Below, piece after piece: positions 1-13,362 of a DNA stretch of 32,000 nt. The notes under the pieces are model-generated. The model made no database searches, was not told the DNA's origin, and saw only the letters and a program-made list of their open reading frames with translations. The DNA comes from an uncultured Muribaculaceae bacterium (GTDB lineage: Bacteria > Pseudomonadota > Alphaproteobacteria > Rs-D84). The position numbers and the translations under genes are program-made. The stretch is taken from assembly GCA_965231035.1 (NCBI GenBank), contig OZ246409.1:301101-333100 (forward strand), in the 5' to 3' direction. How positions within the stretch are numbered: the first letter of the stretch is position 1; every line of letters starts with the position of its first letter.

Positions 1-1265
1 CCACCACCAGTTCTGAAAATTGTCATCTGGCCATTTGGCATAAATCCAATATAGTCAGCAGATGAATAACCAGAATCCTTACCACCGACAACCTTGGCTA
101 ATAAATCGTCTATATCTCTTGAAAAAGAATTATTTATAACCGTTCCATATCCAGCCAAGTCGAACGAATTTAGTGCTGCTGAACTTGAATCTTCTTCGGT
201 CGAATCGTCCAATATTGAATCAGACTCTGACCCACGATTTATTTTATTATTATAATATTTGCTGGACATCATATTATTACTTGCAGATATCACGGCATTA
301 TTATTTGTTTTGCTCCATAATAATAATCTATCTTCAAGTGAAGTATCTTGTTTCGCATTTATACCATTCTTTGTTATTATCGCAACATTTGTTGGGCGAC
401 CACCCATAACAGAACCACCAGTCAAAGAACGACCTGAAAAACTTAGCGGTGCTTTTGATTCTGTGTTTCGCAATGTTCGCATACCCATATAACCACGTGC
501 CAGCGCAGAATATCCATGCATCATCAATAAATAATTTTGTTTATACACATGATTTGTCGTATCCGTACTGGTACCGGTCATCAATGCGAAATTATCTTTT
601 AAAATACCTGCGGTTGATGGGCTGTAATAATTCAAATTGTTTGTGTAATTCGCGGTTTCCGATGTCGCATTAGGCATAGCGGGACTGTAAGGTAATTGAA
701 AAGACGCAGTTCCACCACCAGGCGTAACATTTGTACAATCACATGTGCCATCTGCTTTACATATTCCAACACTGGTAATTGAACAACGACATTGTTCACC
801 CGAAACACATTTTGTATTATCTGTGCTGGTGGTATTACTATTTCCAGCAGATACAACATCCGTTAACATAAACAGTCCGCCAACAACAACGGCGGCCCCT
901 GCCGCCGCCAACGCTATGCTTTGGGCAGAAGACAGCCCGCTGAACAATCCACCAGATTCTTCTTTTGGTAATTTGTTTTTATATTTTTTAATCTGATAAT
1001 CACACTTCGAAGCGTCTGCACCGTACATTTGTAAAATCTGTGCGGCACGAATATCATTATTCATCAATGCTGTGCAAACAACCGACAAGCCAGTATTATC
1101 AACATAGTTTATATCCGCACCATTATTAACCAGTGCTTGAACCTGCTGAACATCACCATTCTTTGCTGCGGCCAGCAACTGAGCTGCAACCTTGAAATTA
1201 TCCACTGCAAAAGCGGAAAATGGAACAAAAATCAAAGAAAACAACAATAATCTTATGTACTTCAT
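1..1265 (-). CDS. exported ankyrin-repeat protein with Gly/Ala-rich hydrophobic segment and small Cys-rich patch (partial; C-terminus lies beyond window start)
   Basis: Absent from the ORF track because there is no stop inside the window. Hand translation of the minus strand from ATG 1265-1263 gives 421 sense codons with no stop. It reads MKYIRLLLFSLIFVPFSAFA-VDNFKVAAQLLAAAKNGDVQQVQALVNNGADINYVDNTGLSVVCTALMNNDIRAAQILQMYGADAS (two ANK-like repeats) ... SIALAAAGAAVVVGGLFML ... CVSGEQCRCSITSVGICKADGTCDC ... YIGFMPNGQMTIFRTGG. A purine run (GAGAGAG) lies a few nt upstream of the ATG. Confidence 0.75.
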   Translation of the reverse strand, partial: MKYIRLLLFSLIFVPFSAFAVDNFKVAAQLLAAAKNGDVQQVQALVNNGADINYVDNTGLSVVCTALMNNDIRAAQILQMYGADASKCDYQIKKYKNKLPKEESGGLFSGLSSAQSIALAAAGAAVVVGGLFMLTDVVSAGNSNTTSTDNTKCVSGEQCRCSITSVGICKADGTCDCTNVTPGGGTASFQLPYSPAMPNATSETANYTNNLNYYSPSTAGILKDNFALMTGTSTDTTNHVYKQNYLLMMHGYSALARGYMGMRTLRNTESKAPLSFSGRSLTGGSVMGGRPTNVAIITKNGINAKQDTSLEDRLLLWSKTNNNAVISASNNMMSSKYYNNKINRGSESDSILDDSTEEDSSSAALNSFDLAGYGTVINNSFSRDIDDLLAKVVGGKDSGYSSADYIGFMPNGQMTIFRTGG

Positions 1266-1330
1266 GAAAACTCTCTCTGCTAGAGAAAATTTTAACATAA
1301 AAATGTCAAATCTGTCCAGCGGAAAAAATG

Positions 1331-1603
1331 TTATCTTGTATTAAGTTTTTCAGATTGCAATTTTTTCAATATAATATCATCTGTGGTTTTATCCATATCA
1401 AAACCATCAAGCTTTTTTTCAAACTCTTGTTTTCCAAAATTTTTAATTTTATTTTTATCTTCCAACGACTTGTTAAGCAAATCTATTTTTGTTTTACTTA
1501 AATTTTCATCCAAGGCTTGCTTGACATTTAACAAAACAGATAATGCAAACAGAACCACAAAAGAATATTTACCAAAAGTTTTCAATTTCTTTTTATTATA
1601 CAT
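1331..1603 (-). CDS. small exported or membrane-anchored K/E-rich protein (90 aa), unknown function
   Basis: ORF track. N-terminus MYNKKKLKTFGKYSFVVLFALSVLLNVKQA resembles a signal peptide or anchor. The remainder is charged and coiled-coil-like. AAAGGAAGAG Shine-Dalgarno lies just upstream of the ATG. Co-directional with the 1..1265 gene, 65 nt upstream of it. Confidence 0.55.
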   Translation of the reverse strand: MYNKKKLKTFGKYSFVVLFALSVLLNVKQALDENLSKTKIDLLNKSLEDKNKIKNFGKQEFEKKLDGFDMDKTTDDIILKKLQSEKLNTR

Positions 1604-1727
1604 AAGACTCTTCCTTTGATTACTCTGCTATGTATAATAGACAAACACTATAACCGTCAAGCGTTTTTTCAATTTCAAGTCATTTTAAATATATTTTTGT
1701 TTTTCTCTTTTCTGGTGGGGTGTTTTT

Positions 1728-1736
1728 TGATACAAT
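1728..1736 (+). promoter_or_regulatory. candidate extended -10 promoter element (TGATACAAT) for the four-gene plus-strand operon
   Basis: TGATACAAT matches TGnTAnAAT and ends 15 nt upstream of ATG 1752, within the 148-nt divergent intergenic region. Confidence 0.3.
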
Positions 1737-1751
1737 TAACAAACGAGAGAA

Positions 1752-2618
1752 ATGAATAAAAGTTTTGCCTTTTTCATATTTGCATTCAGCTTTGTATTTG
1801 CTGGTTTTTCTGCCGCAAGTGCTTCTTCGTGCTCGATTATGGATTTGAACAGATGTTTGGATTCAGCTTGCGGAATTAATATCAGCTTAAACCCCGGGGC
1901 ACGTTGTCAGCTTTGTGGAACTGCTCAGGCTGGTGCCGCTGATACAAAAGGATTCAAAAGTTTATCTGTTGGTGCATCAAACCGAAACACATTATCTGCA
2001 TCAGATTTACAATCTGCGCCTTCTGACCCGGGATCCAGATACGCATGGGCCAGTGGCGAATGTTTAAAAAAGATTTCTGGTTGTACCGCAGATGATGTAT
2101 CAAATAACTATGACAAATTAATTGAACAATCTTGTCGTGCTGCGGGTGTTAACGCAGAAATGAATTCTTTGGTATCTGCTGCAAACAAACAAAAAAATGC
2201 AAACGTTTGTAATTCAGAAATTCTTTTGTGTATGAATTCTGAAAAACATTGTGGCGCAGATTTTTCAAATTGCAAAACAGATGAAGATTTTAATAAACAT
2301 TTTTCCGTCTGTGCATCAGATACAATTGGATGTGACAATTTTGTAAGTGATATGCGTACAAATATGATTTCACAGCGTGATTCTGCGACATTGGCTTATG
2401 ATAATTCTGTATCCAGTATTGTTAAATCTTATCAAACAAAACGCGAAAGCGGATTGAAATCTGCAACAGATACTTGCACAAACAACAAGGGACGCGAAAG
2501 TTGCATAAAAACCGTTTGCCAGAATAATATGAAAAACAAGTGTGATAGTGATTCTGAAAAATCAATAGCGACATTGTTATGTAAATTTTACGACACAGCT
2601 TGCGGAAGGTTAAAATAA
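1752..2618 (+). CDS. secreted cysteine-rich protein (288 aa, 20 Cys by hand count), unknown family
   Basis: ORF track. Signal-peptide-like MNKSFAFFIFAFSFVFAGFSAASA. Contains C-x6-C modules including CNSEILLCMNSEKHCGADFSNC (nt 2208-2273). First gene of a tightly spaced four-gene operon. Confidence 0.8.
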   Translation: MNKSFAFFIFAFSFVFAGFSAASASSCSIMDLNRCLDSACGINISLNPGARCQLCGTAQAGAADTKGFKSLSVGASNRNTLSASDLQSAPSDPGSRYAWASGECLKKISGCTADDVSNNYDKLIEQSCRAAGVNAEMNSLVSAANKQKNANVCNSEILLCMNSEKHCGADFSNCKTDEDFNKHFSVCASDTIGCDNFVSDMRTNMISQRDSATLAYDNSVSSIVKSYQTKRESGLKSATDTCTNNKGRESCIKTVCQNNMKNKCDSDSEKSIATLLCKFYDTACGRLK

Positions 2619-2621
2619 CAA

Positions 2622-4184
2622 ATGAAATTATACGGTTCAATTTTTACGACTTGTTTTTTGGCTACTGCCTTGGTGTTATCATATAACCCAGCAAACGCCG
2701 CGGTTGTTCAACGTGGATCTGTAACGGCGCGCGCTGCACCACGTGCAAATAATGCTATGCGTATTGCATCAACAACAACTACCAATGATACTGTTGAAGC
2801 AACAGATACAACAGTTGCGGAACTCGAAACAACAGATACAGCAATTGCAGATGCAAATGTAATTGAAAACAAATCTTCTAAATTTGATTCTGTGTTGGGG
2901 GATGTTGGTTCAAATTCAATGGACGTTTCTGCAAAGTCACGCACACAAATGATAATGGATCAACGTGCTGCTTTGGATGCATCAGATACGCAATCCACCA
3001 GCAAAAAAGTTGTTACGACTGCGGGCAGCACTTGCGATACAAATTTGCGTAATTGTATGAAGCAAAAATGCAATAATGATTTTTCAAAATGTTCTGGGGA
3101 CGGCGATACTGATTGGGGAAACAAAATAAATTCTTGCCGTGCCACTTCAAATTGTTCCAGTGAAGAATTTAATTTATTCGCAGATGAAATCAAGGCAGAC
3201 CGAGACTATAATTCAGAAATGGCAAATTATAATCAAACCATTGATTGCGGGAACAGATATAACAGCTGTATAATTTCGCAATGTGGTACAGATTTTTCAA
3301 AATGCCTTTCTAAATCTGTTGCAGATGCTGCGGTGTTGAATTGCACAAAAATCGCAACCGATTGTCAAAGTGCTGATAACGGTTTAACATCCAGGGCTCA
3401 AGAAGTTTTCGGTACACTTCGTAACAACGCCGTAACCCAGACAAAGAAAGATGAAGATCGCCTATATGAACTGCGCAATTTAATGACAGAACAGTGTAAA
3501 AGTTTCGGTGCTTCGTTTGACGAACGCAGTTTGGATTGCGTATTCACAGTAAATCTGTTCGCAAATAATTCTAAAACACCAATGGCATCAAAAAAATTGT
3601 ACGCCGGTGATACATTTGATTGTAACCAGGATTGGTTTGGTATTGATTTAACAACTTATAAAGAAAATGCTTATCGTTTAACACGTTCCCAGACGGCTGC
3701 ATCATCCGCTATGTTGGGTGCAGGATTGGGTGTTGCCGCCGGTGCGATTTCATCGGGTGCAATCAGCCACGCAATTGATACACACAAGGCAGAAAAAGCA
3801 TTAGACGCCGCAAAAGAAAACTCGAATTCCTCAAGTAACAACGAATCAGGTTTATCATCAGTTGATGGAAGCAGCATGAATAAAACAAACACAGAAACTG
3901 AAACCTCTTCAAAAATTGATGTTGAAACAAACCGGGATCAGGTTTTAAAAGATAATGCTAAGATAACAGGAAATAACGCCGAAGCTATGGAAAATATGGA
4001 TAAATCAAGACAAGATTATGAAACCGCCAAGAAAAACAATGATATGATTGGTATGGCAAATGCTGAAGCTAATATGCACGCAGAAGGAAGTAAAGTAAAA
4101 GAAATGGAACATATAGAGGTATCTTCTACACCATCTGCACCAGAAAAAATAGATGCTTCAAAATTATTAGGTGGATCGAAATAA
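2622..4184 (+). CDS. exported cysteine-rich protein with glycine-zipper-like hydrophobic segment and low-complexity tail (520 aa)
   Basis: ORF track. Starts 3 nt after the previous stop. Signal-peptide-like MKLYGSIFTTCFLATALVLSYNPANA. Two units have the pattern C-x6-C-x4-C-x6-C (nt 3033-3092, 3246-3305). Hydrophobic segment AASSAMLGAGLGVAAGAISSGAI lies at nt 3696-3776. The tail is N/S/E/K-rich. Confidence 0.8.
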   Translation: MKLYGSIFTTCFLATALVLSYNPANAAVVQRGSVTARAAPRANNAMRIASTTTTNDTVEATDTTVAELETTDTAIADANVIENKSSKFDSVLGDVGSNSMDVSAKSRTQMIMDQRAALDASDTQSTSKKVVTTAGSTCDTNLRNCMKQKCNNDFSKCSGDGDTDWGNKINSCRATSNCSSEEFNLFADEIKADRDYNSEMANYNQTIDCGNRYNSCIISQCGTDFSKCLSKSVADAAVLNCTKIATDCQSADNGLTSRAQEVFGTLRNNAVTQTKKDEDRLYELRNLMTEQCKSFGASFDERSLDCVFTVNLFANNSKTPMASKKLYAGDTFDCNQDWFGIDLTTYKENAYRLTRSQTAASSAMLGAGLGVAAGAISSGAISHAIDTHKAEKALDAAKENSNSSSNNESGLSSVDGSSMNKTNTETETSSKIDVETNRDQVLKDNAKITGNNAEAMENMDKSRQDYETAKKNNDMIGMANAEANMHAEGSKVKEMEHIEVSSTPSAPEKIDASKLLGGSK

Positions 4185-4187
4185 AAA

Positions 4188-4784
4188 ATGAAAAAAGTAT
4201 TAACAAGTATCTTTTCTATTCTTATATTAACGCCTGCAATCTCTACTGGTTTGTCAGACTACAAAAATTGTAAACTTAACATAGACTCAGAATATTCCAG
4301 AAAAGAACTTTCTTTAGAATCTCAACAGAAACTTGACACATGGATGAAAACGCCCCTAACAGAAGATAGAAAAGGTACATTTAATAGTATTTCATATTCT
4401 TGCCCAGCTGGGACACTTCCTAGCGACTGCTCCGGACAAGGAAAAGATATTTTAAAATCTCTATATGAAAAATATTTAAAACAAATGGAAATTGATGCTG
4501 CTGTGAAAGAAAAATGTACAAACGACACTTCTATTCAGACAGATGTTAAAAAAACAGAAGTTGTGGAAAATTTAAAGAATACTGTTAAAGAGACCAATAC
4601 TGAAAAAAATAGTAACTCAAAAGAAAGCTTCGGCAGCGGTATTAAGAATATGTTCAAATCCGACAAGAAAAAACTAGCAGAGGCAACTCAACAAGCAACA
4701 GATTCAGAAAAACAAGCATTAGAAGAATTTAACACATCTGTTCAAATTGCAAAATCTGAATTTGAAAGAAAACTTGGAATTTAA
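4188..4784 (+). CDS. secreted protein (198 aa, 4 Cys, K/E-rich C-terminal half), unknown function
   Basis: ORF track. Starts 3 nt after the previous stop. Signal-peptide-like MKKVLTSIFSILILTPAISTG. Confidence 0.7.
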   Translation: MKKVLTSIFSILILTPAISTGLSDYKNCKLNIDSEYSRKELSLESQQKLDTWMKTPLTEDRKGTFNSISYSCPAGTLPSDCSGQGKDILKSLYEKYLKQMEIDAAVKEKCTNDTSIQTDVKKTEVVENLKNTVKETNTEKNSNSKESFGSGIKNMFKSDKKKLAEATQQATDSEKQALEEFNTSVQIAKSEFERKLGI

Positions 4785-4796
4785 AGCGGCAATAAT

Positions 4797-6164
4797 ATGA
4801 AGAAACTACTTTTTGTATTTTTATTTTTACTTCCTGTTACTGCTTTTGCAGATGCTTTTGACGACGCTGTGGCAAAATATGAGTCTGATGTCAAAAATGC
4901 AACAAATATATTGAATAGTAAAATCACACAAAATACAAATCTTGTACAACTGTCCACAGATCAAGTAAACGATGATATGAAATCAACTGTCAGAACAGCT
5001 AAAAAGAAATTTAACAAACAGTTAAGTTCCCAAGAAAAAGAAGATGAACAAAAATATCAAGAAAAACAACAAGAAGTAAGTGAACAAACAGATGTTTCAA
5101 ATTCCGCAAATTCATCAAATGTTACAAATCCTGATAAAATTGCCGAGCTTGAAGCCAATGCCAAGGCAATGAAAGATAAAGAAAACTCAACTGCAAATAA
5201 AATGCTGGGGGCGGCAGCCGTTGGCGCAACCGGAATTGGCGGCAGCCAATTGTTGCAAGGTCTGTCCGAAAAAAAATCAGACGATGCAGCCGAACGTGAT
5301 ATGAAAGCTTATCTGGCAACATTTAAATGTGACTATGGTCAGGGACAAAATGTTAACGGTGGCGATAAATCAATCACCCTGCCCGGCGGAAATGTTTTAA
5401 CATCTTATTACACAGAATATAAAACTCTGGCAGCTAATCTTAAAACTACGAAAACTGCTTTGGGATTAACACCTGGAATTGAATCTGAAACATTATTGGA
5501 TAAATCAACCGCAGGGCTTTATGACAATGAATCAACTGGCAAAAAATCTGGTGCTTTTGCCAGCGTATCTGATGCCTTGTCTGGGAATGCAGATGCTAAA
5601 GACGCTTGGAATGCCCAAAAATCCGAAGCATCTAAAAAGGTCACAACTGGTATTGTTGCCGCCGGCGTTGGTATTGTTGGTGGCGCAGTTGGAAATATGT
5701 TGATAAATAAAGATTCCACCAAGGAAAGTTCAGATGTAAATTCTGATGATAAAAAAACAAATGATACAAGTTCTTCTGTGACTTCTTCTGATAAAAGCAA
5801 TGAACAAAAAATATCTTCTGTTACAAATGATAATGTTTCTTTGGATAACACAGATAAAAAAACTAATACTTTTGAAGATTTAGACAAAAAATATAAAGAC
5901 GCAGCAATCAAATTCAAAGAAGCAGACGAATTATATAATAAATTAGCTAATGAAAGTATGAAAAACGGTGGTGTTGTTACTGAAGAATTAGAAGATGCAA
6001 GAATTGCGCGCGACCAAGCAGAGAAAGACCTTGAAACTGCAAAAAGTGAAACTGTTACAGCCAATTCATCTATGAAAGAAATTCAAACTGGAAATAATAC
6101 CTCTGATGATATCTCGAAACTATCTAATAATTCTTCTACTTTGTCATTGCGAGGAATGAAATGA
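4797..6164 (+). CDS. exported coiled-coil/low-complexity protein with two glycine-zipper-like segments (455 aa)
   Basis: ORF track. Signal-peptide-like MKKLLFVFLFLLPVTAFA. Gly-rich hydrophobic segments are MLGAAAVGATGIGGSQLL (nt 5202-5255) and TTGIVAAGVGIVGGAVGNMLI (nt 5643-5705). The last 7 codons and the stop lie inside repeat copy 6141-6166. Confidence 0.75.
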   Translation: MKKLLFVFLFLLPVTAFADAFDDAVAKYESDVKNATNILNSKITQNTNLVQLSTDQVNDDMKSTVRTAKKKFNKQLSSQEKEDEQKYQEKQQEVSEQTDVSNSANSSNVTNPDKIAELEANAKAMKDKENSTANKMLGAAAVGATGIGGSQLLQGLSEKKSDDAAERDMKAYLATFKCDYGQGQNVNGGDKSITLPGGNVLTSYYTEYKTLAANLKTTKTALGLTPGIESETLLDKSTAGLYDNESTGKKSGAFASVSDALSGNADAKDAWNAQKSEASKKVTTGIVAAGVGIVGGAVGNMLINKDSTKESSDVNSDDKKTNDTSSSVTSSDKSNEQKISSVTNDNVSLDNTDKKTNTFEDLDKKYKDAAIKFKEADELYNKLANESMKNGGVVTEELEDARIARDQAEKDLETAKSETVTANSSMKEIQTGNNTSDDISKLSNNSSTLSLRGMK

Positions 6165-6322
6165 TGTATTAACTGGATTGCCACGCTTCGCTCGCAATGA
6201 CAAATTGTTGGGGTTAGTTATAGTTCCAGTTTGTCATTGCGAGGAATAAAATGACGAAGCAATCCAGGTTGATAAAAGAAAAACATATTGACTGGATTGC
6301 CGTGCTTCGCTCGCAATGACAA
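6141..6322. repeat. cluster of four copies of a palindromic 31-37 nt repeat family, in alternating orientation
   Basis: 6141-6166 ttgtcattgcgaggaatgaaatgatg (truncated). 6173-6203 ctggattgccacgcttcgctcgcaatgacaa. 6231-6267 ttgtcattgcgaggaataaaatgacgaagcaatccag. 6292-6322 ctggattgccgtgcttcgctcgcaatgacaa. The termini ttgtcattgcgag/ctcgcaatgacaa and gcaatccag/ctggattgc are reverse complements. Confidence 0.85.
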
Positions 6323-6331
6323 ATCTAAATT

Positions 6332-6357
6332 AAAAACCGCCCATTTGGGCGGTTTTT
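6332..6357. terminator. bidirectional intrinsic terminator between convergent genes
   Basis: aaaaaccgcccatttgggcggttttt: a GC stem ccgccc/gggcgg flanked by an A-run and a T-run. It sits between the stop at 6164 (+) and the stop at 6373 (-). Confidence 0.8.
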
Positions 6358-6372
6358 AACTTTTATACCTTA

Positions 6373-8421
6373 TTATTGGCATGCGCCATAAGATACTGCA
6401 ACTGGATGATTATCTACGCAAGTGCTGCCAGAAACAACACATGCTGTATTTACCAATTGTGTATTGGTTGAATTAACCGGTTTATAATTCAGCTGTGCTG
6501 CTGCGCACTGGTTCAAATCTTTCAGTGTTGCACAAGCATTCTTCCACGAAGTACAATCTGTCGCAGTTGCTGTTGGCATAATTGTATCTGGCAAACGCAG
6601 GTTCCATTTGACATAGAAGTCTTTTAACGAACCAATGCTATAAGATTTACCAAAGTCAACCTTTTGCAATCCGTCACCAACACGACAGTTAATGTTGTTC
6701 TTTTCAACAAAAGATGTGATTGCTGTTGCCAATCCACCTGCGGCGGCACCAGCACCGGCACCAATTGCAGTTGACGCCAACATGTTTGAATCCTCACCCT
6801 GCAATATTGTCAACTGATTCATAACATTTCCCAGTTCTTTTACTTGTTTTCCAAATTCTTCACTATCAACGCAATTATTGTTATTCCCCGAACAATATGG
6901 TTTTATACCATTCTTTTTTGCAAGATTCAAGTTACTGAATGTCATGGCACATTTATCTGTCGATGTTATAACAGTATTATCATTAGAAAGTTTTTTTACC
7001 GTTATTTTAATACTTCTGGTTCCATCATCAGTCAGGTATTTTACCTTATCTTCTGTCAAACTATTATTCATTACTTCACGATCTTTATTATCCTTTGAAA
7101 CTTTGTCAAGCATTGCTTTACTAGTAGTTCCATCGAAAAGTATATCTTTTGCTGTTACATCTATATCTTCGGTATTAGTAATATTTATTGCTGAATTTGT
7201 TGTACCAGTTGTGCATGATTTCAATGCAACTTTTGCTGCTTGGTAATCACTGTAAAGTGTAACTATGGCTTCGCACTGATCGCCAATATATTCATTTACA
7301 ATAATCTGGCTTTCAGAATCCAAGAATTGATTTAAAACAGCGACCTTGCCAGTTGCACGCAATTCCTTATCCAATTCTTTTACCTGATCTTTGTCTTTGC
7401 AGTTAAAGTTACGTTGACCATGGCCGGCCAATGCACCGATACCTGCACCAACCAATGTACCACCACCAACACCAACGACTGATGTGGTCTTGGTCTTGGT
7501 CATCAAACCAAACCCAAACATATCTTTACCACAGTTAAAGCTGCTGCCTGCTGATTTCCAAACTTCGGCCGGTTGATCATTTCCAGCGGCACCAAATAAC
7601 CAACTGTTTTTGATTTGTGAATCTTTGTTGTACGCTGCAACACGAACCAAACATTCACCCTTGACCGCATCCCATCTGGCATAATGTCCACGTTGTGCAT
7701 CAACAGTACCATTATTATTAACCCTTACACCCTGAGGCATATCTTTGGTCAAAGATCCACCAGACTGACTGTTATAAGCACCAACAGTTTGGTTATATTC
7801 TTCTGTGACTTTTCCACCATTCGAAATCGCTGCAAAAGATGAACCATAAGTATTTTTATCCAACAACCAACATGTATTTTCTGCTTGGTTTGGTGTTAAT
7901 CCTGTTTTGCGCAGAACAAAAGAATAATATTCAGGTTGAATCTTGCGAGAGTTATAGTCCCACCAAAAATCAGAAGAAGTAGCATAAACATTTTTGCAAT
8001 TCTTACGAACGTCGCTGATACATTTATCCACCTGGGCATAACACAGACTCATTCCATTAAAGATAGAATTACGCAAATCTTCGTTGAACAAATCGTTTAA
8101 CCCACCAGGAAGTGCACCGTTGTTAATACAAGAAGTAACATCGTTGATGCAATTTTCAACTGTATATTCAGAATTTGCAACACCACCATCTGGACACTTG
8201 GAAACTGTTGTTCCTGTATTCGTTGTAGTATTACCAGTCGCATTGCCAGGAAGAATTGACATTGTTGGCATACGTTGCTGACCTGCTGTATAGGCTGCCC
8301 CACGAACCGGTGCAACATTATAACCCGCACGCCCTGTATCCGCTGCACCTGCAGAACCTAGAACAAAAACTGTACTTGCAGACACAATGGAAAACCCGAA
8401 TTTCTTTAATAAATTGTGCAT
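6373..8421 (-). CDS. exported cysteine-rich protein with two glycine-zipper-like segments (682 aa, 22 Cys by hand count)
   Basis: ORF track. Signal-peptide-like MHNLLKKFGFSIVSASTVFVLGSAGA. AAGGGAGAA Shine-Dalgarno upstream. C-x6-C pairs include CINDVTSC (nt 8128-8151). Gly-rich segments lie at nt 7417-7479 and 6706-6777. Confidence 0.85.
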   Translation of the reverse strand: MHNLLKKFGFSIVSASTVFVLGSAGAADTGRAGYNVAPVRGAAYTAGQQRMPTMSILPGNATGNTTTNTGTTVSKCPDGGVANSEYTVENCINDVTSCINNGALPGGLNDLFNEDLRNSIFNGMSLCYAQVDKCISDVRKNCKNVYATSSDFWWDYNSRKIQPEYYSFVLRKTGLTPNQAENTCWLLDKNTYGSSFAAISNGGKVTEEYNQTVGAYNSQSGGSLTKDMPQGVRVNNNGTVDAQRGHYARWDAVKGECLVRVAAYNKDSQIKNSWLFGAAGNDQPAEVWKSAGSSFNCGKDMFGFGLMTKTKTTSVVGVGGGTLVGAGIGALAGHGQRNFNCKDKDQVKELDKELRATGKVAVLNQFLDSESQIIVNEYIGDQCEAIVTLYSDYQAAKVALKSCTTGTTNSAINITNTEDIDVTAKDILFDGTTSKAMLDKVSKDNKDREVMNNSLTEDKVKYLTDDGTRSIKITVKKLSNDNTVITSTDKCAMTFSNLNLAKKNGIKPYCSGNNNNCVDSEEFGKQVKELGNVMNQLTILQGEDSNMLASTAIGAGAGAAAGGLATAITSFVEKNNINCRVGDGLQKVDFGKSYSIGSLKDFYVKWNLRLPDTIMPTATATDCTSWKNACATLKDLNQCAAAQLNYKPVNSTNTQLVNTACVVSGSTCVDNHPVAVSYGACQ

Positions 8422-8542
8422 TATTTCTCCCTTTAATTGTTTTAATTATAGCACCAAATACACTATAAAAAAAGTATTTTCTGTATAAAAAACAAATTAA
8501 TATTCTGCGGTTTTAATATTTTTTACGTTTTAGTAGTAATAT

Positions 8543-8571
8543 TTGACAAATAAACAAAATTCGTCTATTAT
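8543..8571 (+). promoter_or_regulatory. candidate sigma70-type promoter TTGACA-17 nt-TATTAT
   Basis: TTGACA at 8543-8548, a 17-nt spacer, then TATTAT at 8566-8571. ATG 8579 lies 7 nt after the -10 element, which would give a leaderless or near-leaderless mRNA. Confidence 0.4.
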
Positions 8572-8578
8572 TAAATTG

Positions 8579-9505
8579 ATGAAAAAGCTGTCTGAGTTTT
8601 TAAAGACAAATGTGCTGGCAGTAAAGTGGACCTTTTGGTATTTTGCTGCGTTTTATGCTGTCCTGTCCTTTTTATTTGGATTTAATATATTTTCTGCAAA
8701 TGATTGGATTATGATTACTCATTCCAGATTGCGCGGACTACCTGGTTTTACTTTTGGAATTATTATGTTTTCAGCAATTCCTTTGTACATTGCGACTACT
8801 GCAACAATTATAAAAACGAAAAAACCTTTATTTAATTTCTTTACTGCAAAAAAAGAAGAACCTAAAAAAATAGCCGAAGAAAAAAAAGAAGTTTTCAAAG
8901 AAATTATTATTCAATTTCCAGAAAGAATGCCGACTGAATTACGTGGTGCGTTTATTCGTGCAAGACAACAAGCTGGTGTCAGACCAGAATCTGCCTTTGA
9001 TATGAAAGACATAAAATCACAACCAAAAGTGGCAATCGAAGAAAAAAAAGAAGAAACACCAGAATTTGGTTTACCATTGCCTGATAATTTTGATTTTACA
9101 TCTGAAAACGAATCGCCTGCCGAATTACAGTTCAGTTCAACACCTGTGTTCAAAGAAATTAATTTTGGAGATTTTAATACAAAGAAAGATAGCAAATCAC
9201 CATTGATTGAACATCTTGAAAGCAAAGGATATGAAATTGCTTTTGATGGTAATGTTGTAATCGCAAATAATTTTGCAATTGCGGTTCACGACGATTCGGA
9301 TTTTTGGATTGCTGATAAAGACAATTGGTTTGCAGCAGGCAAACAAAAAGAATCCCCCATATCCGAAGTTTTAATGGTATCTGAAAAACACGGTGTAAAT
9401 GCGATGATTTATTTGGCGGAAAAAAATATTATGGATTTGGACAAACGAATTGCAGAATGGGAATTCAAAGGAGTCAAGGTTATTAAAAACCTGACTGAAA
9501 TTTAA
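8579..9505 (+). CDS. membrane protein (about 3 N-terminal TM helices plus soluble C-terminal domain), unknown function
   Basis: The ORF track frame runs 8543..9505 from a TTG. I prefer ATG 8579 (MKKLSEFLKTNVLAVKWTFWYFAAFYAVLSFLFGFNIF...) because the TTG coincides with a consensus -35 hexamer and has no SD. This is the only island ORF without a cleavable-looking signal peptide. Confidence 0.65.
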   Translation: MKKLSEFLKTNVLAVKWTFWYFAAFYAVLSFLFGFNIFSANDWIMITHSRLRGLPGFTFGIIMFSAIPLYIATTATIIKTKKPLFNFFTAKKEEPKKIAEEKKEVFKEIIIQFPERMPTELRGAFIRARQQAGVRPESAFDMKDIKSQPKVAIEEKKEETPEFGLPLPDNFDFTSENESPAELQFSSTPVFKEINFGDFNTKKDSKSPLIEHLESKGYEIAFDGNVVIANNFAIAVHDDSDFWIADKDNWFAAGKQKESPISEVLMVSEKHGVNAMIYLAEKNIMDLDKRIAEWEFKGVKVIKNLTEI

Positions 9506-9519
9506 TTAGCTAATAAAAC

Positions 9520-9658
9520 TTGTCATTGCGAGGAGTGCAACGACGAAGCAATCCAGTGGATAAAAATGCAAAAGCATACTTACTGGATTGCCACGCTTCA
9601 CTCGCAATGACAATCTGGTCTTATTTACTGGATTGCCGCGCTTCGCTCGCAATGACAA
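9520..9658. repeat. second cluster (three copies) of the same palindromic repeat family
   Basis: 9520-9556 ttgtcattgcgaggagtgcaacgacgaagcaatccag. 9583-9613 ctggattgccacgcttcactcgcaatgacaa. 9628-9658 ctggattgccgcgcttcgctcgcaatgacaa. Confidence 0.85.
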
Positions 9659-9664
9659 AGAAAT

Positions 9665-9690
9665 AAAAAATCCGCCAAGGCGGATTTTTT
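9665..9690. terminator. bidirectional intrinsic terminator between convergent genes
   Basis: aaaaaatccgccaaggcggatttttt, lying between the stop at 9505 (+) and the stop at 9693 (-). Confidence 0.8.
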
Positions 9691-9692
9691 AT

Positions 9693-12470
9693 TTACATCT
9701 GTACACCATTTGTAACTGTTGTTGGATCTTTGAATTTAGTACAAAAAACACCTTCAAATTTTTTCGTCACTCTTTTTCTTCCACCACCTATATGCAATAT
9801 ACCACCTCCACCTTTGCATCCACCACCACCAAAAAAACTTAACCCACCATAACTACAAGTATTAGATTTTGAATAAACATCTTTAAATGTATCACACATA
9901 GTCGTAACTGTAGTTATATTGCAAGTATTAGATGAAGATGAATATACAGAAGTTAAAGAAACCTTTCCAATCATATTACCCTTAGTATCCGTTTGAGTCC
10001 ATTCAGAATGACCACTGGATGCTACAGAAATTATATCCGACATCTTTGCACCACTTATAATATATTTCATTGAGTAAATATCATTACCAGACACACCTTT
10101 ACTTGATGTATCATCAAACAAATCAGCATAAGATGTAGCTTCATATGCTGTGCAATTCCCGTCAGAATCATAAGTTTTACAAGATTTAGGTTCTGATGCC
10201 ATAGCTGCACACATTGCTGTTTTTAAATCATCATTTTGATTTTCTAATGCTTCTGATACCATTTTATCATACTTTTTATTATAGTTTTTATTTGCTTTTT
10301 CCAAGCCAGAATTCATTATAGCCAATATAGAAGAATCTAATAAATTTGGATATCTTGCCGTAGATGTTGTTGATACTGCATTTGTTCCATCACCACGAAT
10401 TTGTGTCATATCACGACCCTCAATACACATCTTTATTTTTGCATCCTGAGACAAGACAGCTATCTTTTGATTCATCTTATTTGCCGTGGATTGTAAAGAT
10501 GAAACAACGCGTGAGGTCAAAGAATCTGAAGATAATAAATGATTTTTGTAATCATTTATATCAATCTCGTACTTACCAAATTTTACATCTGTATCACTAC
10601 TTTTTGTCCTTTCAATTTTCACATTTCCATAAGAAACTAATCCTTCAATTACATAATCTCCATTATTATCCTTGTAACTGGATAAACTTTCTGTACCAAT
10701 AGAATCATCATCATCGAATGCTGTGCAATTATCAGTATCACCACATATTTCTATCATTTTTTCAGACACAATTTTTTGACATTTATCCAGCAGCGAATTA
10801 TCTATATTAAGGTAAATTCCTTGTACTATATTATCTATATCATTAATATTATTTAAAACGCCATCTTTTTGACATCCTACCAGTTTATCAATTGGACATA
10901 GTTTCTTTATATCACTCAAATCTAAACCTATACAATTATGAAAATCTTCGCCGCAAGTATTTTCATTAGTGAAACATTCTTTAACTTCGGTTGTACAAGA
11001 ATCAACACGCATTGCTGATAATTTTGCATAGACATAATCCAGAATCAAAGGTTCTGCTGAAACACAAGGATCGATTTGCACTTTGCATAAAGAACGAACT
11101 GTTTCTGGACGTGATAAACACATATCATATGAACCATCCGGATCATTTGGATCAATTGTATCTTTACATGCTTTTTGGAAACATGAGGATATATTAGAAA
11201 TACAATTTGTCCGTAAATTAGATTCAGCCAATAGTTCAGCTGTTTTTAAAGTTGGTGCAACATCACGCAAAAATGAATTCCAAACCTGGTCTTTTACTGC
11301 AACACAAGAATTTGTTATATTTTCACACATTGGTTTTTTTGATTCCAGCGCATCCATAGTGGATGCAGCAACTGAAATTTTTGTATTTGATCCGGTTATA
11401 TCAACCATCTTCATAGAAGACTTAGAACTGCTGGACATCTTGGCATTTTCAGCCGCAGCAATTCCAACACAGCCTGTAAAATCACTTTTGCAACCTGCTG
11501 TATCAGTCATGCATTTTTCAAAAGCCAAAGTACACTGACCTAGGTCATATTTATTTGCTGTACGTAATGAATCCAAAGCGGCATCACGCAGAGCCTTTTG
11601 TGCAGTTGCTAATTTCTGTGTGCTGGAATTTTTTTGCTTAGTTAAATCATTTTCATACGCCGCACAATCAGATTTTATATTCTGAGAATAACCAAGTTGT
11701 ATCATTGCCAAATCTTCTGAACATTCTGGAATTTGTGCTGAACACAATTCAGCAACAGAACTATACAAGTCATTACCTGTTTTACCTTCAACAGGGCTTA
11801 CCTCTCTTTGTGCAAATATATCTTGATCCATTGTATCAGAATCCGTCTGATTCCACTGACTTAAATCCAACGTTTTTTTCTGGGTTACATTACTAGTTGT
11901 TAAACTATTTGCTGTATTGTTTGCAGATGCGATTACTTTATCTGCATCAGAACCCATTTCAATTTTTTCAACACCCTCGGTTGCCATTTTATAACTTTGA
12001 GCATCCAAAGCCTGAATCTGAACCTGAACCTTATCCAGCTCAGCCTTGCGATCACTGCATAAACAACGACCGCCACTGGTGTTTTCAATCATACAAAAAG
12101 AATCCATACATCCATAATATTTTTGCTTACAAGCTTCATCCACTATTATATTCTTGTTCACACCAGAAATTGCAGTACCTGAATTTATAACTTTTTGCAT
12201 AGTCCCAGCACGTGCAGAAACAACTGGCGCGGACATTGGAGTTGCCGCAGATCTGGCAGATATTGTTCGAACGTTTGAAGATGTTGCACTGGGCATTACA
12301 GCTGAACGTGCAGAAGTTGGTCTGACAGCAGCACGTGCCGACACGGGTGTTTGTGCAGTGCTTTCAGATGGTTGTGATACAGATTGACCACGCCTTTGCA
12401 CAGGAACTTCAGCATTTGCACACACAACAAAGGTTGCCATAAAAATAGAAAAAATTGCAATTTTTCTCAT
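9693..12470 (-). CDS. large exported cysteine-rich protein (925 aa, 38 Cys in predicted mature part by hand count), unknown family
   Basis: ORF track. Signal-peptide-like MRKIAIFSIFMATFVVCANA. GGAG Shine-Dalgarno about 8 nt upstream. Four SAR[AS][AG] repeats follow the signal peptide. Two units of C-x6-C-x6-C-x6-C lie at nt 11469-11534 and 10932-10997. The C-terminus is Gly-rich. Confidence 0.85.
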   Translation of the reverse strand: MRKIAIFSIFMATFVVCANAEVPVQRRGQSVSQPSESTAQTPVSARAAVRPTSARSAVMPSATSSNVRTISARSAATPMSAPVVSARAGTMQKVINSGTAISGVNKNIIVDEACKQKYYGCMDSFCMIENTSGGRCLCSDRKAELDKVQVQIQALDAQSYKMATEGVEKIEMGSDADKVIASANNTANSLTTSNVTQKKTLDLSQWNQTDSDTMDQDIFAQREVSPVEGKTGNDLYSSVAELCSAQIPECSEDLAMIQLGYSQNIKSDCAAYENDLTKQKNSSTQKLATAQKALRDAALDSLRTANKYDLGQCTLAFEKCMTDTAGCKSDFTGCVGIAAAENAKMSSSSKSSMKMVDITGSNTKISVAASTMDALESKKPMCENITNSCVAVKDQVWNSFLRDVAPTLKTAELLAESNLRTNCISNISSCFQKACKDTIDPNDPDGSYDMCLSRPETVRSLCKVQIDPCVSAEPLILDYVYAKLSAMRVDSCTTEVKECFTNENTCGEDFHNCIGLDLSDIKKLCPIDKLVGCQKDGVLNNINDIDNIVQGIYLNIDNSLLDKCQKIVSEKMIEICGDTDNCTAFDDDDSIGTESLSSYKDNNGDYVIEGLVSYGNVKIERTKSSDTDVKFGKYEIDINDYKNHLLSSDSLTSRVVSSLQSTANKMNQKIAVLSQDAKIKMCIEGRDMTQIRGDGTNAVSTTSTARYPNLLDSSILAIMNSGLEKANKNYNKKYDKMVSEALENQNDDLKTAMCAAMASEPKSCKTYDSDGNCTAYEATSYADLFDDTSSKGVSGNDIYSMKYIISGAKMSDIISVASSGHSEWTQTDTKGNMIGKVSLTSVYSSSSNTCNITTVTTMCDTFKDVYSKSNTCSYGGLSFFGGGGCKGGGGILHIGGGRKRVTKKFEGVFCTKFKDPTTVTNGVQM

Positions 12471-12494
12471 AACAAAATCTCCAATGCTTGATTT

Positions 12495-12503
12495 ATTTTA
12501 TCA
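12495..12503 (-). promoter_or_regulatory. candidate extended -10 element (TGATAAAAT on minus strand) for the 925-aa gene
   Basis: The reverse complement of 12495-12503 reads TGATAAAAT, 24 nt upstream of ATG 12470. The SD lies in between. Confidence 0.3.
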
Positions 12504-12555
12504 GAAAAATCAGATTTATGAAAGACTTTTAATAAAAATCTATTATTTAAACCCT

Positions 12556-12584
12556 AAAAAAATCCGCACGAATGCGGATTTTTT
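12556..12584. terminator. intrinsic terminator ending the ribosomal alpha operon (after rplQ)
   Basis: aaaaaaatccgcacgaatgcggatttttt: stem atccgca/tgcggat flanked by A and T runs, 19 nt downstream of the rplQ stop. Confidence 0.8.
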
Positions 12585-12602
12585 ATTTTTTAGATTTTTT
12601 GA

Positions 12603-13145
12603 TTATTTTCCTGTCGAACGACGTTTAACAGAAACTTCTTTCTTTGCTGATGTTGACTTAGAAACACCTGTATCTTTTGCAACTTTTGTTGCAACTGGTG
12701 CTTTTGGTGCTTTCTTTTCAGCAACTGGTGCAGAAGTTTTCTTTTCTTCTGTTTTCGCAGGTGCTACTTTTTTCGCATTTTCGTCACGATCAACCAATTC
12801 AATTATTGCCATCGGTGCAGCGTCACCATAGCGGAAACCTGCTTTCAATACACGTGTATAACCACCTGGACGTTTTGCATAACGTGGTCCCAAAACAGTG
12901 AACAATTTTTTAACTGTTGATTCACCACTGTTACCAAGTTCAGATGCCAACAAACGACGATTTGCGACAGAATCAACTTTGGCGCGTGTGATTAATTTTT
13001 CCACAACCGAGCGAAGATCTTTTGCTTTTGGCAAAGTTGTTTTAATTTGTTCTTTTTCAATCAAGTTTTTTGCCAAGCCTAAAAACAAAGCTTTGCGTGC
13101 GCTGTTATCGCGGTTAAATTTGCGTTTTGCTATTTGATGTCTCAT
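12603..13145 (-). CDS. rplQ: 50S ribosomal protein L17 with K/A/P-rich C-terminal extension
   Basis: [21 protein letters not shown]... is an L17-type N-terminus. AAGGAG SD upstream. Terminal position after rpoA. At 180 aa it is long for L17 because of the tail [35 protein letters not shown]... Confidence 0.95.
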
Positions 13146-13362
13146 TTATTCGCTCCTTTTGTTGCAGCCTGCTGTTACACAGGATCAAGACATTTTCATA
13201 ACCTGAAAATATTTCAGAATTATGAAGTTTTTCCAAGTTTCAAAAAACAACTTGGTAAGAAATTAAATTAAAATAATGCAGATGCGAAGCATTTGTCAAA
13301 GGGAGTGTATTGGACATACATGACCGAAAACAAATGCCAGCAGATGCGTTATTTTATTTAAT

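Follow-up and report, generated by a model that had tools for sequence, protein, structure and literature searches.

A recurrent six-cysteine module with C-x6-C spacing in the predicted exported proteins of a conserved Rs-D84 gene cluster

In the secreted Hcp proteins of Helicobacter, alpha/alpha repeats are each bridged by a disulfide between regularly spaced cysteines (Cys). CHCH proteins, which reside in the mitochondrial intermembrane space, are oxidised in a Mia40-dependent manner (PMC5404111), and the CX6C or CX6CC motif of gamma-type retroviral and filoviral envelope glycoproteins (Env) forms a chain-reversal ring with an intrachain disulfide between two helical segments (PMC9967133). 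Here, we analysed a stretch of 32,000 nucleotides (nt; hereafter the window) from an uncultured bacterium of the alphaproteobacterial order Rs-D84 (contig OZ246409.1, positions 301,101 to 333,100), in which a cluster of seven genes encodes four large proteins, p288, p520, p682 and p925, that share a repeated C-x6-C spacing. Members of Rs-D84, also described as Candidatus Enterousia, are widespread gut inhabitants of humans, livestock, rodents, birds and termites. A dependence on partner cells has been suggested for these bacteria, which have genomes mostly smaller than 1 Mb, are fermentative and without respiratory chains and were proposed to be obligate symbionts or parasites (PMC12306168).

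The repeated spacing belongs to a larger unit, which we define as the six-Cys module C1-x6-C2-x4/6-C3-x6-C4-x12–15-C5-x5–7-C6. The original prediction, which was made from the letters of the window and the translations of their open reading frames (ORFs), had described a four-Cys unit: this unit is real, but it corresponds to only the first two thirds of the module, to which a downstream C-x5-7-C pair also belongs. We propose, with a probability of about 0.7, that intramolecular structural disulfides staple these helical modules. The four proteins and their Cys-containing elements (coordinates in the window; amino acids abbreviated as aa) are the following:

1752..2618, plus strand: p288, ORF; predicted secreted, all-helical protein of 288 aa with one 8-Cys module A and two 6-Cys modules.
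1830..2135, plus strand: p288 module A, C27-x7-C35-x4-C40-x11-C52-x2-C55 ... C104-x6-C111-x16-C128, from profile-profile comparison with p925 module A.
2208..2333, plus strand: p288 module B, C153, 160, 167, 174, 187 and 194, from the pattern and a match of the module hidden Markov model (HMM).
2475..2603, plus strand: p288 module C, C242-x8-C251-x4-C256-x7-C264-x12-C277-x6-C284, from a pattern match.
2622..4184, plus strand: p520, ORF; predicted secreted protein with two six-Cys modules, an F-x-C...FG motif with a glycine (Gly) zipper and a low-complexity tail.
3033..3155, plus strand: p520 module B1, C138, 145, 150, 157, 172 and 178, from the pattern and the module HMM.
3246..3365, plus strand: p520 module B2, C209, 216, 221, 228, 241 and 248, from the pattern and the module HMM.
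6373..8421, minus strand: p682, ORF; predicted secreted protein with 22 Cys and a highly conserved central domain.
8020-8151 and 6418-6555, minus strand: the two four-Cys ladders of p682, C91/98 + C127/134 and C623/630 + C661/668, respectively.
6871-6894, minus strand: variable isolated loop C510-C517 of p682.
9693..12470, minus strand: p925, ORF; predicted secreted protein of 925 aa.
12057-12131 plus 11664-11744, minus strand: p925 module A.
11304-11534, minus strand: p925 module B1, with a 48-aa insert.
11064-11204, minus strand: p925 module B2.
10872-10997, minus strand: p925 module B3.

The peptides quoted in the original prediction translate exactly at 2208-2273, 3033-3092 and 3246-3305 and, on the minus strand, at 11469-11534, 10932-10997 and 8128-8151, and all the C-x6-C pairs that it listed are present. 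When p288, p520, p682 and p925 are taken together, they contain 27 Cys pairs at i,i+7 versus 4.0 ± 1.9 in residue shuffles, and none of 5000 shuffles reached 27, showing that the spacing is far more frequent than composition predicts. In the pooled histogram of Cys spacings (d) of these four proteins, d=7 accordingly stands out with 27 pairs, while any other distance up to 20 gives at most 10. The motif C-x-x-D-F-x-x-C, which had been considered common to the large proteins, occurs five times, once in p288 and twice each in p520 and p925, whereas p682 lacks this unit. The DNA string GATTTTTCAAA, which accompanies the motif at 2259, 3078 and 3291, is found nowhere else in the window (0.30 expected).

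The same spacing dominates among relatives of these proteins. In 334 ORFs of the families from 79 related loci, 1788 Cys pairs lie at d=7, compared with 825 at d=12 and 717 at d=14; secondary peaks are seen at d=5, 12 and 14, and all distances except 7, 12 and 14 give at most 452 pairs. The peaks at d=12 and d=14 are sums of module spacings. The histogram from 818 unrelated ORFs of the same loci is, by comparison, flat (93-184). Each d=7 spacing is kept in 90-100% of orthologues, and in at least 95% for every pair but one; the exception to fixed spacing is the C510-C517 pair of p682, which ranges from 4 to 14. Linkers between modules vary among orthologues while the 7-spacings stay fixed, and the Cys show little or no variation across orthologues whose overall identity is only 40–55%.

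A search with the pattern C-x6-8-C-x4-6-C-x6-16-C-x10-15-C-x5-7-C returned six contiguous matches (p288 at residues 153 and 242, p520 at 138 and 209, p925 at 423 and 492), versus 0.018 in 3000 shuffles, and p925 carries a seventh copy at residues 313–389, which is the one with the 48-residue insert. The first 22 residues of p288 module B are the four-Cys unit mentioned above. When four module types were aligned across many orthologues (41 sequences), the six Cys were the sole invariant columns, giving the consensus C1-x6-C2-Φ-x3-5-C3-G-x-D-[FYW]-x-x-C4-…-C5-x5-7-C6. The module HMM found one copy in 37/37 p288 orthologues, two copies in 39/40 p520 orthologues and two copies in 92/96 p925 orthologues. 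Since the modules are only ~20-35% identical apart from their Cys, their duplications appear to be ancient and the pattern to be under selection. The positions C1+4 and C2+1 are hydrophobic in at least 70% of sequences of every module, which gives an a/d heptad with the Cys at d. Profile-profile comparisons showed that the short modules are the only parts common to the families; they also aligned the N-terminal boxes of p288 and p925, as had been predicted (probability 80%), and the N-terminal half of p288 appears as a small version of the 8-Cys module A of p925 (probability 80% and 68%).

In p288, 20/20 Cys are invariant across 102 homologues, although one homologue (P0289) lacks all eight module A Cys together and has an unrelated N-terminal part; the C256-C264 spacing of module C varies from 7 to 30 among homologues. 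We considered that C27, which lies in an A-S-S-C sequence after a hydrophobic region, might be a lipoprotein Cys, but this was judged less likely because the 20 Cys form an even, fully invariant set and such a modification would leave an odd number. In p520, 15 mature Cys are conserved (as judged from 41 orthologues), and five of six spacings of module B1 are invariant across these 41 orthologues.

No named domain was found for the unit in Pfam, NCBIfam or the PDB. Pfam-A and NCBIfam searches with the seven cluster proteins, 30 p682 orthologues, 30 p320 orthologues and 41 isolated modules gave only sub-threshold noise, and a precomputed Pfam domain is absent from more than 240 listed homologues. 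PDB sequence-profile searches with p925, p288, p682 and p320 gave nothing below E=0.28, and Foldseek searches with AlphaFold2 models of p288 and p925 gave no match in the PDB or BFVD. A profile built from 102 p288 homologues and compared with 1.84 billion representative proteins gave 66 matches, nearly all of them full-length or fragmentary members of the same family. When the 41-sequence module alignment was run against a collection of 5.8 billion proteins, a single candidate passed the word prefilter and none scored; since even the source families were missed, this negative carries no information. These protein families are new to the databases searched and lineage-specific.

AlphaFold2 models offered a first view of where the Cys lie. 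The p288 model (predicted local distance difference test score, pLDDT, of 87.7, and ~96 over modules B and C) is all-helical, and the p925 model (pLDDT 71.8) is helical with a beta-rich C-terminus containing long hairpins. C1 and C2 lie within one helix for p288 153/160 (helix 150–161) and for p925 313/320, 423/430 and 492/499, while p288 C167 and C174 lie in the loop 162-176 and p925 C327 and C506 lie in loops. The proposal that heptad spacing would place the thiols on one helix face therefore holds in these models for C1 and C2, but not for C3-C4, which sit in a loop. Residues seven apart in an alpha-helix are ~10.5 Å from each other and cannot be bonded directly, so C1 and C2 must each bond elsewhere. 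Based on these models, we read the i,i+7 spacing as having two causes: heptad periodicity for C1/C2 and a closed eight-residue ring for C3–C4, with heptad periodicity probably also accounting for C5/C6.

Natural losses of Cys point to the partners. In p925, C499 (C2) and C525 (C5) are lost together in four sequences, with C499 replaced by L and C525 by V or I; independently, the p288 homologue P0261 has C160 (C2) replaced by Y and C187 (C5) by A, while its other 18 Cys are kept. In module C of p288, C256 and C264 (C3 and C4) are deleted together with the intervening loop in the L045 orthologue. Joint losses were also found in p682, affecting C510 and C517 in three sequences and C76 and C142 in two. 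Combining the 2–5 and 3–4 pairs leaves 1–6, so that the sequences favour a nested connectivity of 1–6, 2–5 and 3–4, which we regard as reasonably probable. The number of Cys after the signal peptide is moreover even in 35/37 p288, 60/63 p682 and 186/210 p925 sequences, and a preference for even Cys numbers in exported proteins is taken as a sign of intramolecular disulfides (PMC7678975). Pairwise co-loss and even counts both fit the "disulfide ladder" that had been suggested for these proteins, as well as the suggested parallel with twin-CX3C/CX9C hairpins, which is an analogy and not a membership.

According to this model, C1 and C2 would occupy 'd' positions of an amphipathic helix, separated by two turns; the chain would then reverse through the tip C3-G-x-D-[FYW]-x-x-C4, an eight-residue ring closed by a direct disulfide, and on its return C5 would bond C2 and C6 would bond C1. 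The product would be a 'twin-CX6C' hairpin with a disulfide-clasped turn and three nested disulfides. Module A, an 8-Cys variant, and the clasp-free four-Cys ladders would obey the same logic, and strings of modules would staple long helices into rigid rods resistant to protease and denaturant.

Several points weigh against this picture. The nested connectivity was assembled from co-losses in different module types and not from S-S distances, and the co-loss events are few, probably one or two independent ones per pair. In the AlphaFold2 model of p288, C187 lies near the C-terminal end of helix 177-190, so that a simple antiparallel hairpin would put it nearer to C153 than to C160, and the geometry may be less regular than we propose. 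The function of the cluster, for its part, was deduced from architecture and synteny alone. The gut lumen is reducing, and genes with DsbA or thioredoxin motifs were not found in the ~1.5 Mb of fetched loci, which cover only ~10 kb around the cluster. Since Rs-D84 bacteria are described as lacking respiratory chains (PMC12306168), the classical DsbB-quinone route is not evident for the ~45 disulfides that the cluster would need. Mean-field direct coupling analysis of 180-189 p288 homologues was also tried as a source of helix-helix contacts, but the top couplings were gap or indel artefacts (effective number of sequences, Meff, ~146-160) and the result was discarded.

Alternatively, the Cys could be mainly intermolecular, with the i,i+7 thiols facing partner proteins, and cross-links would then join the cluster proteins into an envelope lattice comparable to the outer membrane complex of chlamydiae. 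In one variant, oxidation outside the host and reduction in the gut might make this lattice a redox switch. The proteins are co-encoded and strongly syntenic, and a reducing habitat combined with the need to survive transmission between hosts (lifestyle in PMC12306168) would suit such a lattice. So would the Cys numbers of p520 and of p455, another predicted secreted protein of the cluster: these two are the sole cluster proteins with odd numbers (15 and 1 in the window), the number is odd in 31/41 p520 and 22/28 p455 orthologues, and the single Cys of p455 (C178, codon 5328-5330) is present in 28/28 orthologues. Cys numbers are, however, even in p288, p682 and p925, Cys are lost in intramolecular pairs with hydrophobic replacement, modules B and C of p288 are modelled as a monomer at pLDDT ~96 and the Pfam models of OmcA and OmcB found no match, so that we consider a general lattice quite unlikely. 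Because of the odd numbers, the sequences nevertheless suggest one unpaired Cys each in p520 and p455, which could form an intermolecular disulfide; C334 of p520 (codon 3621-3623, plus strand) is a candidate for such an unpaired Cys.

Less probable again is that the Cys on the helix faces bind metal, in thiolate sites or clusters with Zn, Fe or Cu, which would make the modules metal-binding or redox elements. The motifs are rich in Cys and carry a conserved Asp (C-G-x-D-[FYW]-x-x-C), the habitat is anaerobic and reducing with no respiratory chain to serve DsbB (PMC12306168), and isolated modules gave weak, chance-level matches to zinc-finger Pfam models, but these matches were single-member and far under the cut-off. 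A metal site, which the original prediction had offered as an alternative, is mainly disfavoured because exactly two Cys can be lost, with hydrophobic replacement, while the other four are retained, a change that would wreck a Cys4 or Cys6 site. The ring of one i,i+7 pair also ranges in size from 4 to 14, neither His partners nor CxxC or CxxCH motifs are present, and the signal peptides are of the Sec type. That the motif is instead a known Cys-rich repeat missed by the models (Sel1-like Hcp, CHCH, thrombospondin-type or EGF-like) is very improbable given the absence of any match in Pfam-A/NCBIfam, PDB profile or Foldseek PDB/BFVD searches and a six-Cys pattern and spacing unlike those of each named candidate. 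Finally, the three occurrences of GATTTTTCAAA across p288 and p520 hint at a shared ancestry of the unit, but we give almost no credence to the idea that the spacing lacks structural meaning and merely results from composition or from a recent internal duplication: shuffles never reach the observed counts, spacing and Cys persist among homologues with only 40-55% overall identity, and the modules are ~20-35% identical outside their Cys. Stapling of helical modules by intramolecular disulfides hence stays our preferred explanation.

The remaining features of the cluster and of its surroundings are as follows:

3612..3776, plus strand: p520 motif F-D-C334-x-x-D-W-F-G followed by a Gly/Ala-rich zipper (residues ~331-385).
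4188..4784, plus strand: p198, ORF; small, predicted secreted, fast-evolving protein with 4 Cys.
4797..6164, plus strand: p455, ORF; predicted secreted, helical, low-complexity protein with Gly zippers at nt 5202-5264 and 5643-5705.
6173-6201, 6292-6320, 9583-9611 and 9628-9656, plus strand: copies of the 29-bp repeat CTGGATTGCCNCGCTTCNCTCGCAATGAC, with imperfect inverted partners near 6232-6268 and 9522-9556.
6330-6359 and 9661-9694: bidirectional hairpin terminators beside the CTGGATTGCCNCGCTTCNCTCGCAATGAC copies.
7417-7548 and 6706-6783, minus strand: Gly zippers of p682.
8543..9505, plus strand: p320, Cys-free membrane protein with two predicted transmembrane helices.
~9696-10193, minus strand: beta-rich C-terminal domain of p925 (residues ~760-925).
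12156-12410, minus strand: disordered Ala/Arg/Ser/Thr-rich N-terminal region of p925 (residues 21-105; AlphaFold2 pLDDT <50).
12557–12584: hairpin terminator between rplQ and p925.
L069:8577-11408 (plus), L043:10361-13219 (plus), L032:1061-2893, L035:15652-17622 and L053:7290-9266: extra Cys-rich secreted proteins of related loci.

The cluster, which spans ~10 kb, lies beside the ribosomal alpha operon and is widespread in the lineage. p925 is 100% identical to a protein annotated as 'hypothetical' in an alphaproteobacterial metagenome-assembled genome, in which the cluster has locus tags PKJ33_00055 to 00085, and it has more than 1210 homologues, every one of them annotated as 'hypothetical'. 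When one genome per GTDB species was scanned, a p925 relative proved to be encoded in 380 species genomes, whose titles read Candidatus Enterousia, 'Rickettsiales bacterium' or 'Alphaproteobacteria bacterium' and whose origins are rumen, faeces, termite gut and mouse gut. The order p925–p320–p682–p455–(p198)–p520–p288 is conserved in most of the 79 fetched related loci, where p320 adjoins p682 in 62/63 loci and p288 adjoins p520 in 36/37; rplQ lies within 600 nt of p925 in 35 loci, and in 29 of these both genes point in the same direction. One orthologue of p198 was detected among the 79 loci, and several loci carry one to three additional p925 paralogues. Related genomes also encode other very Cys-rich secreted proteins near the cluster, outside the four families, for example proteins of 943-952 aa with 68 Cys that start ...AAGDDVSCADFCDGCDGC, and p520 and p455 of other species have long additional Cys-rich extensions with up to 77 Cys.

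Upstream of p288, positions 1-1265 (minus strand) encode the N-terminus of a further large secreted protein, for which the public gene call gives 1256 aa. It contains an ankyrin repeat, a hydrophobic segment rich in Gly and Ala, and a Cys cluster of another type, CVSGEQCRCSITSVGICKADGTCDC. A relative of this protein lies beside p288 in 22/79 loci, and it may belong to the same system as the cluster. On the other side, ribosomal protein L17 (12603-13145, minus strand; 180 aa) has a Lys/Ala/Pro-rich C-terminal tail of ~60 residues. The four copies of CTGGATTGCCNCGCTTCNCTCGCAATGAC in the window (0 expected) all lie within the convergent intergenic regions p455/p682 and p320/p925, and the repeat looks like a REP/MITE-like element (repetitive extragenic palindrome or miniature inverted-repeat transposable element); the ORF at 9588-9842 is spurious and results from translation of CTGGATTGCCNCGCTTCNCTCGCAATGAC. 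An Rfam search over positions 1-13300 gave only sub-threshold matches, on terminator hairpins.

p320, the only Cys-free protein of the cluster, has a strongly conserved C-terminal domain with invariant H249, W255, D258, W262, G266, S271 and P272, and neither a Pfam search with its 30 orthologues nor a PDB profile search gave a match. Translation of p320 probably begins at the ATG at 8579, which would yield 308 aa, the length of the public gene call; a near-consensus promoter-like site at 8543-8571 overlaps the TTG that is listed as the start.

The N-terminal region of mature p925 (residues 21-105) contains A-R-S-A-type repeats and ends with a near-invariant A-R-A-x-x-x-Q-K-V-x-x-x-G-T-K; the mature N-termini of p520 and p682 have similar R-G...A-R-A-A stretches, with weak profile matches to this region of p925, which could be a sorting or wall-binding signal. 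At the other end, two predicted strands of great length (849-874 and 897-913) flank the Gly-rich loop GGGGCKGGGGILHIGGG in the C-terminal domain of p925, whose ...I-K-M ending is conserved. For this domain, Foldseek gave only chance-level matches, to stem hairpins of alpha-haemolysin-type pore formers; the domain could be a membrane-inserting or oligomerising anchor. Within the C435-C451 ring of module B2, residues 437-449 (11124-11162, minus strand) form a near-invariant acidic loop, D-T-I-D-P-N-D-P-D-G-S-Y-D, and acidic D-x-D stretches also follow C4 in other modules, such as DGDTDWG in p520. The loop D-P-N-D-P-D-G-S-Y-D may be a Ca2+-binding site, although it does not match the canonical DxDxDG register; an EF-hand or thrombospondin-type Ca site was considered for it and rejected on account of this register.

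All six Cys-containing proteins have a typical N-terminal signal peptide, as judged by reading their sequences, and we infer that p288, p520, p682 and p925 are exported by Sec and reside in the envelope, with a mainly alpha-helical structure. The F-x-C…F-G motif region of p520 aligns with residues 291-326 of p682 (profile probability 62%). Since the proteins appear to be exported from a conserved cluster and since they carry zippers, the F-x-C…F-G motif, a beta-rich domain and, for two of them, odd Cys numbers, a membrane-anchored, disulfide-stabilised assembly is suggested, and we tentatively propose that the cluster proteins build a stable assembly in the envelope or at the surface, a possibility to which we give clearly less than even odds. 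This assembly would be anchored by the Gly-zipper segments of p520, p455 and p682 and by the beta-rich C-terminus of p925, with one intermolecular disulfide possible between p520 and p455. Rs-D84 genomes lack standard transporters, and the bacteria may depend on uncharacterised membrane proteins for contact with other cells (PMC12306168); the cluster is a candidate for such a role. Considering its p925 relatives in 380 species genomes, its recurrent order and its ribosomal neighbours, it is a prime candidate for a role in envelope integrity or cell contact.

A far-reaching version of this proposal, which we regard as unlikely, is that the cluster encodes a hitherto unrecognised apparatus of the envelope or for cell contact that defines the Rs-D84 lineage. 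It would consist of tandem twin-CX6C hairpins, a new class of disulfide-rich fold, with its ~45 disulfides formed by a non-canonical route or by oxygen exposure outside the host. If the disulfides were formed by oxygen, this would amount to a redox-switched, transmission-stage envelope with a logic like that of chlamydial elementary bodies. The cluster also poses a question of physiology, namely by what means dozens of Cys per protein are oxidised in a strict fermenter that lacks quinone-linked respiration. As a structure, the module would provide a compact helical scaffold under strong constraint, which is apparently new, as Foldseek gave no PDB match.

Several known systems resemble parts of the cluster. 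The chlamydial proteins OmcA and OmcB are likewise exported, Cys-rich proteins of the envelope, from a bacterium that has a small genome and depends on its host, and a functional analogy is possible. They are cross-linked by intermolecular disulfides into a detergent-insoluble envelope complex, of which the odd Cys numbers of p520 and p455 are the only hint in the cluster, whereas the evidence gathered here favours intramolecular pairs; no relationship in sequence was seen, and the Pfam models Chlam_OMP3 and Chlam_OMP6 gave no match at E<=1. Gly-zipper_Omp and Gly-zipper_YMGG models (PF13488 and PF13441; Rickettsia 17-kDa antigen type) weakly match the GxxxG-type Gly/Ala-rich segments of p520, p455 and p682 (E 0.002-0.1), with a best score of 14.4 bits against cut-offs of 25-28.9 and sub-threshold matches also for p682; this likeness covers the anchoring segments and not the Cys modules. 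Hcp proteins have one disulfide per ~36-aa repeat and match Pfam Sel1, while the module described here has six Cys with another spacing, and Sel1 matched none of the seven proteins, 30 p682 orthologues or 41 modules. Metal-ligand patterns of the CxxC, CxxCH or Cx2Cx2Cx3C type were not found in the modules.

The CX6C(C) loop of the retroviral and filoviral glycoproteins, which lies between the N- and C-heptad repeats of a class I fusion subunit and adjoins an immunosuppressive-domain sequence, resembles the proposed C3-C4 clasp, C-G-x-D-[FYW]-x-x-C, and thus one sub-element only; the proteins described here differ by an unrelated sequence context, by the lack of a heptad-repeat trimer signature and of a fusion-protein architecture and by the absence of a BFVD/PDB match.

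The closest parallel is given by the twin-CX9C (CHCH) and twin-CX3C (small Tim) proteins. CHCH domains carry two C-x9-C motifs, one per helix of a helix-turn-helix, and the CHCH Pfam model gave no match at E<=10 with the 41 isolated modules; for twin-CX3C (Pfam zf-Tim10_DDP), there was no Pfam match, and no i,i+4 Cys pair in the pooled histogram of the four proteins. In both types, as proposed here, a Cys pair placed whole helical turns apart on one face of a helix is stapled to a returning pair within a small helical fold that is oxidised in an extracytoplasmic compartment; the disulfides of CHCH proteins are nested (C1-C4 and C2-C3), as those of the modules would be, judging from Cys co-loss. 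Unlike twin-CX9C and twin-CX3C proteins, the modules have an x6 spacing and a third disulfide that would clasp the turn, do not rely on a Mia40 pathway and stand in tandem within large (288-925 aa) bacterial proteins predicted to be exported by Sec. The module would in this respect be a novel form of the disulfide-stapled helical hairpin, a kind of structure that is already known: with its two turns, CX6C is intermediate between CX3C (one turn) and CX9C (three turns), and the six-Cys module fills the gap between these two helical staples.

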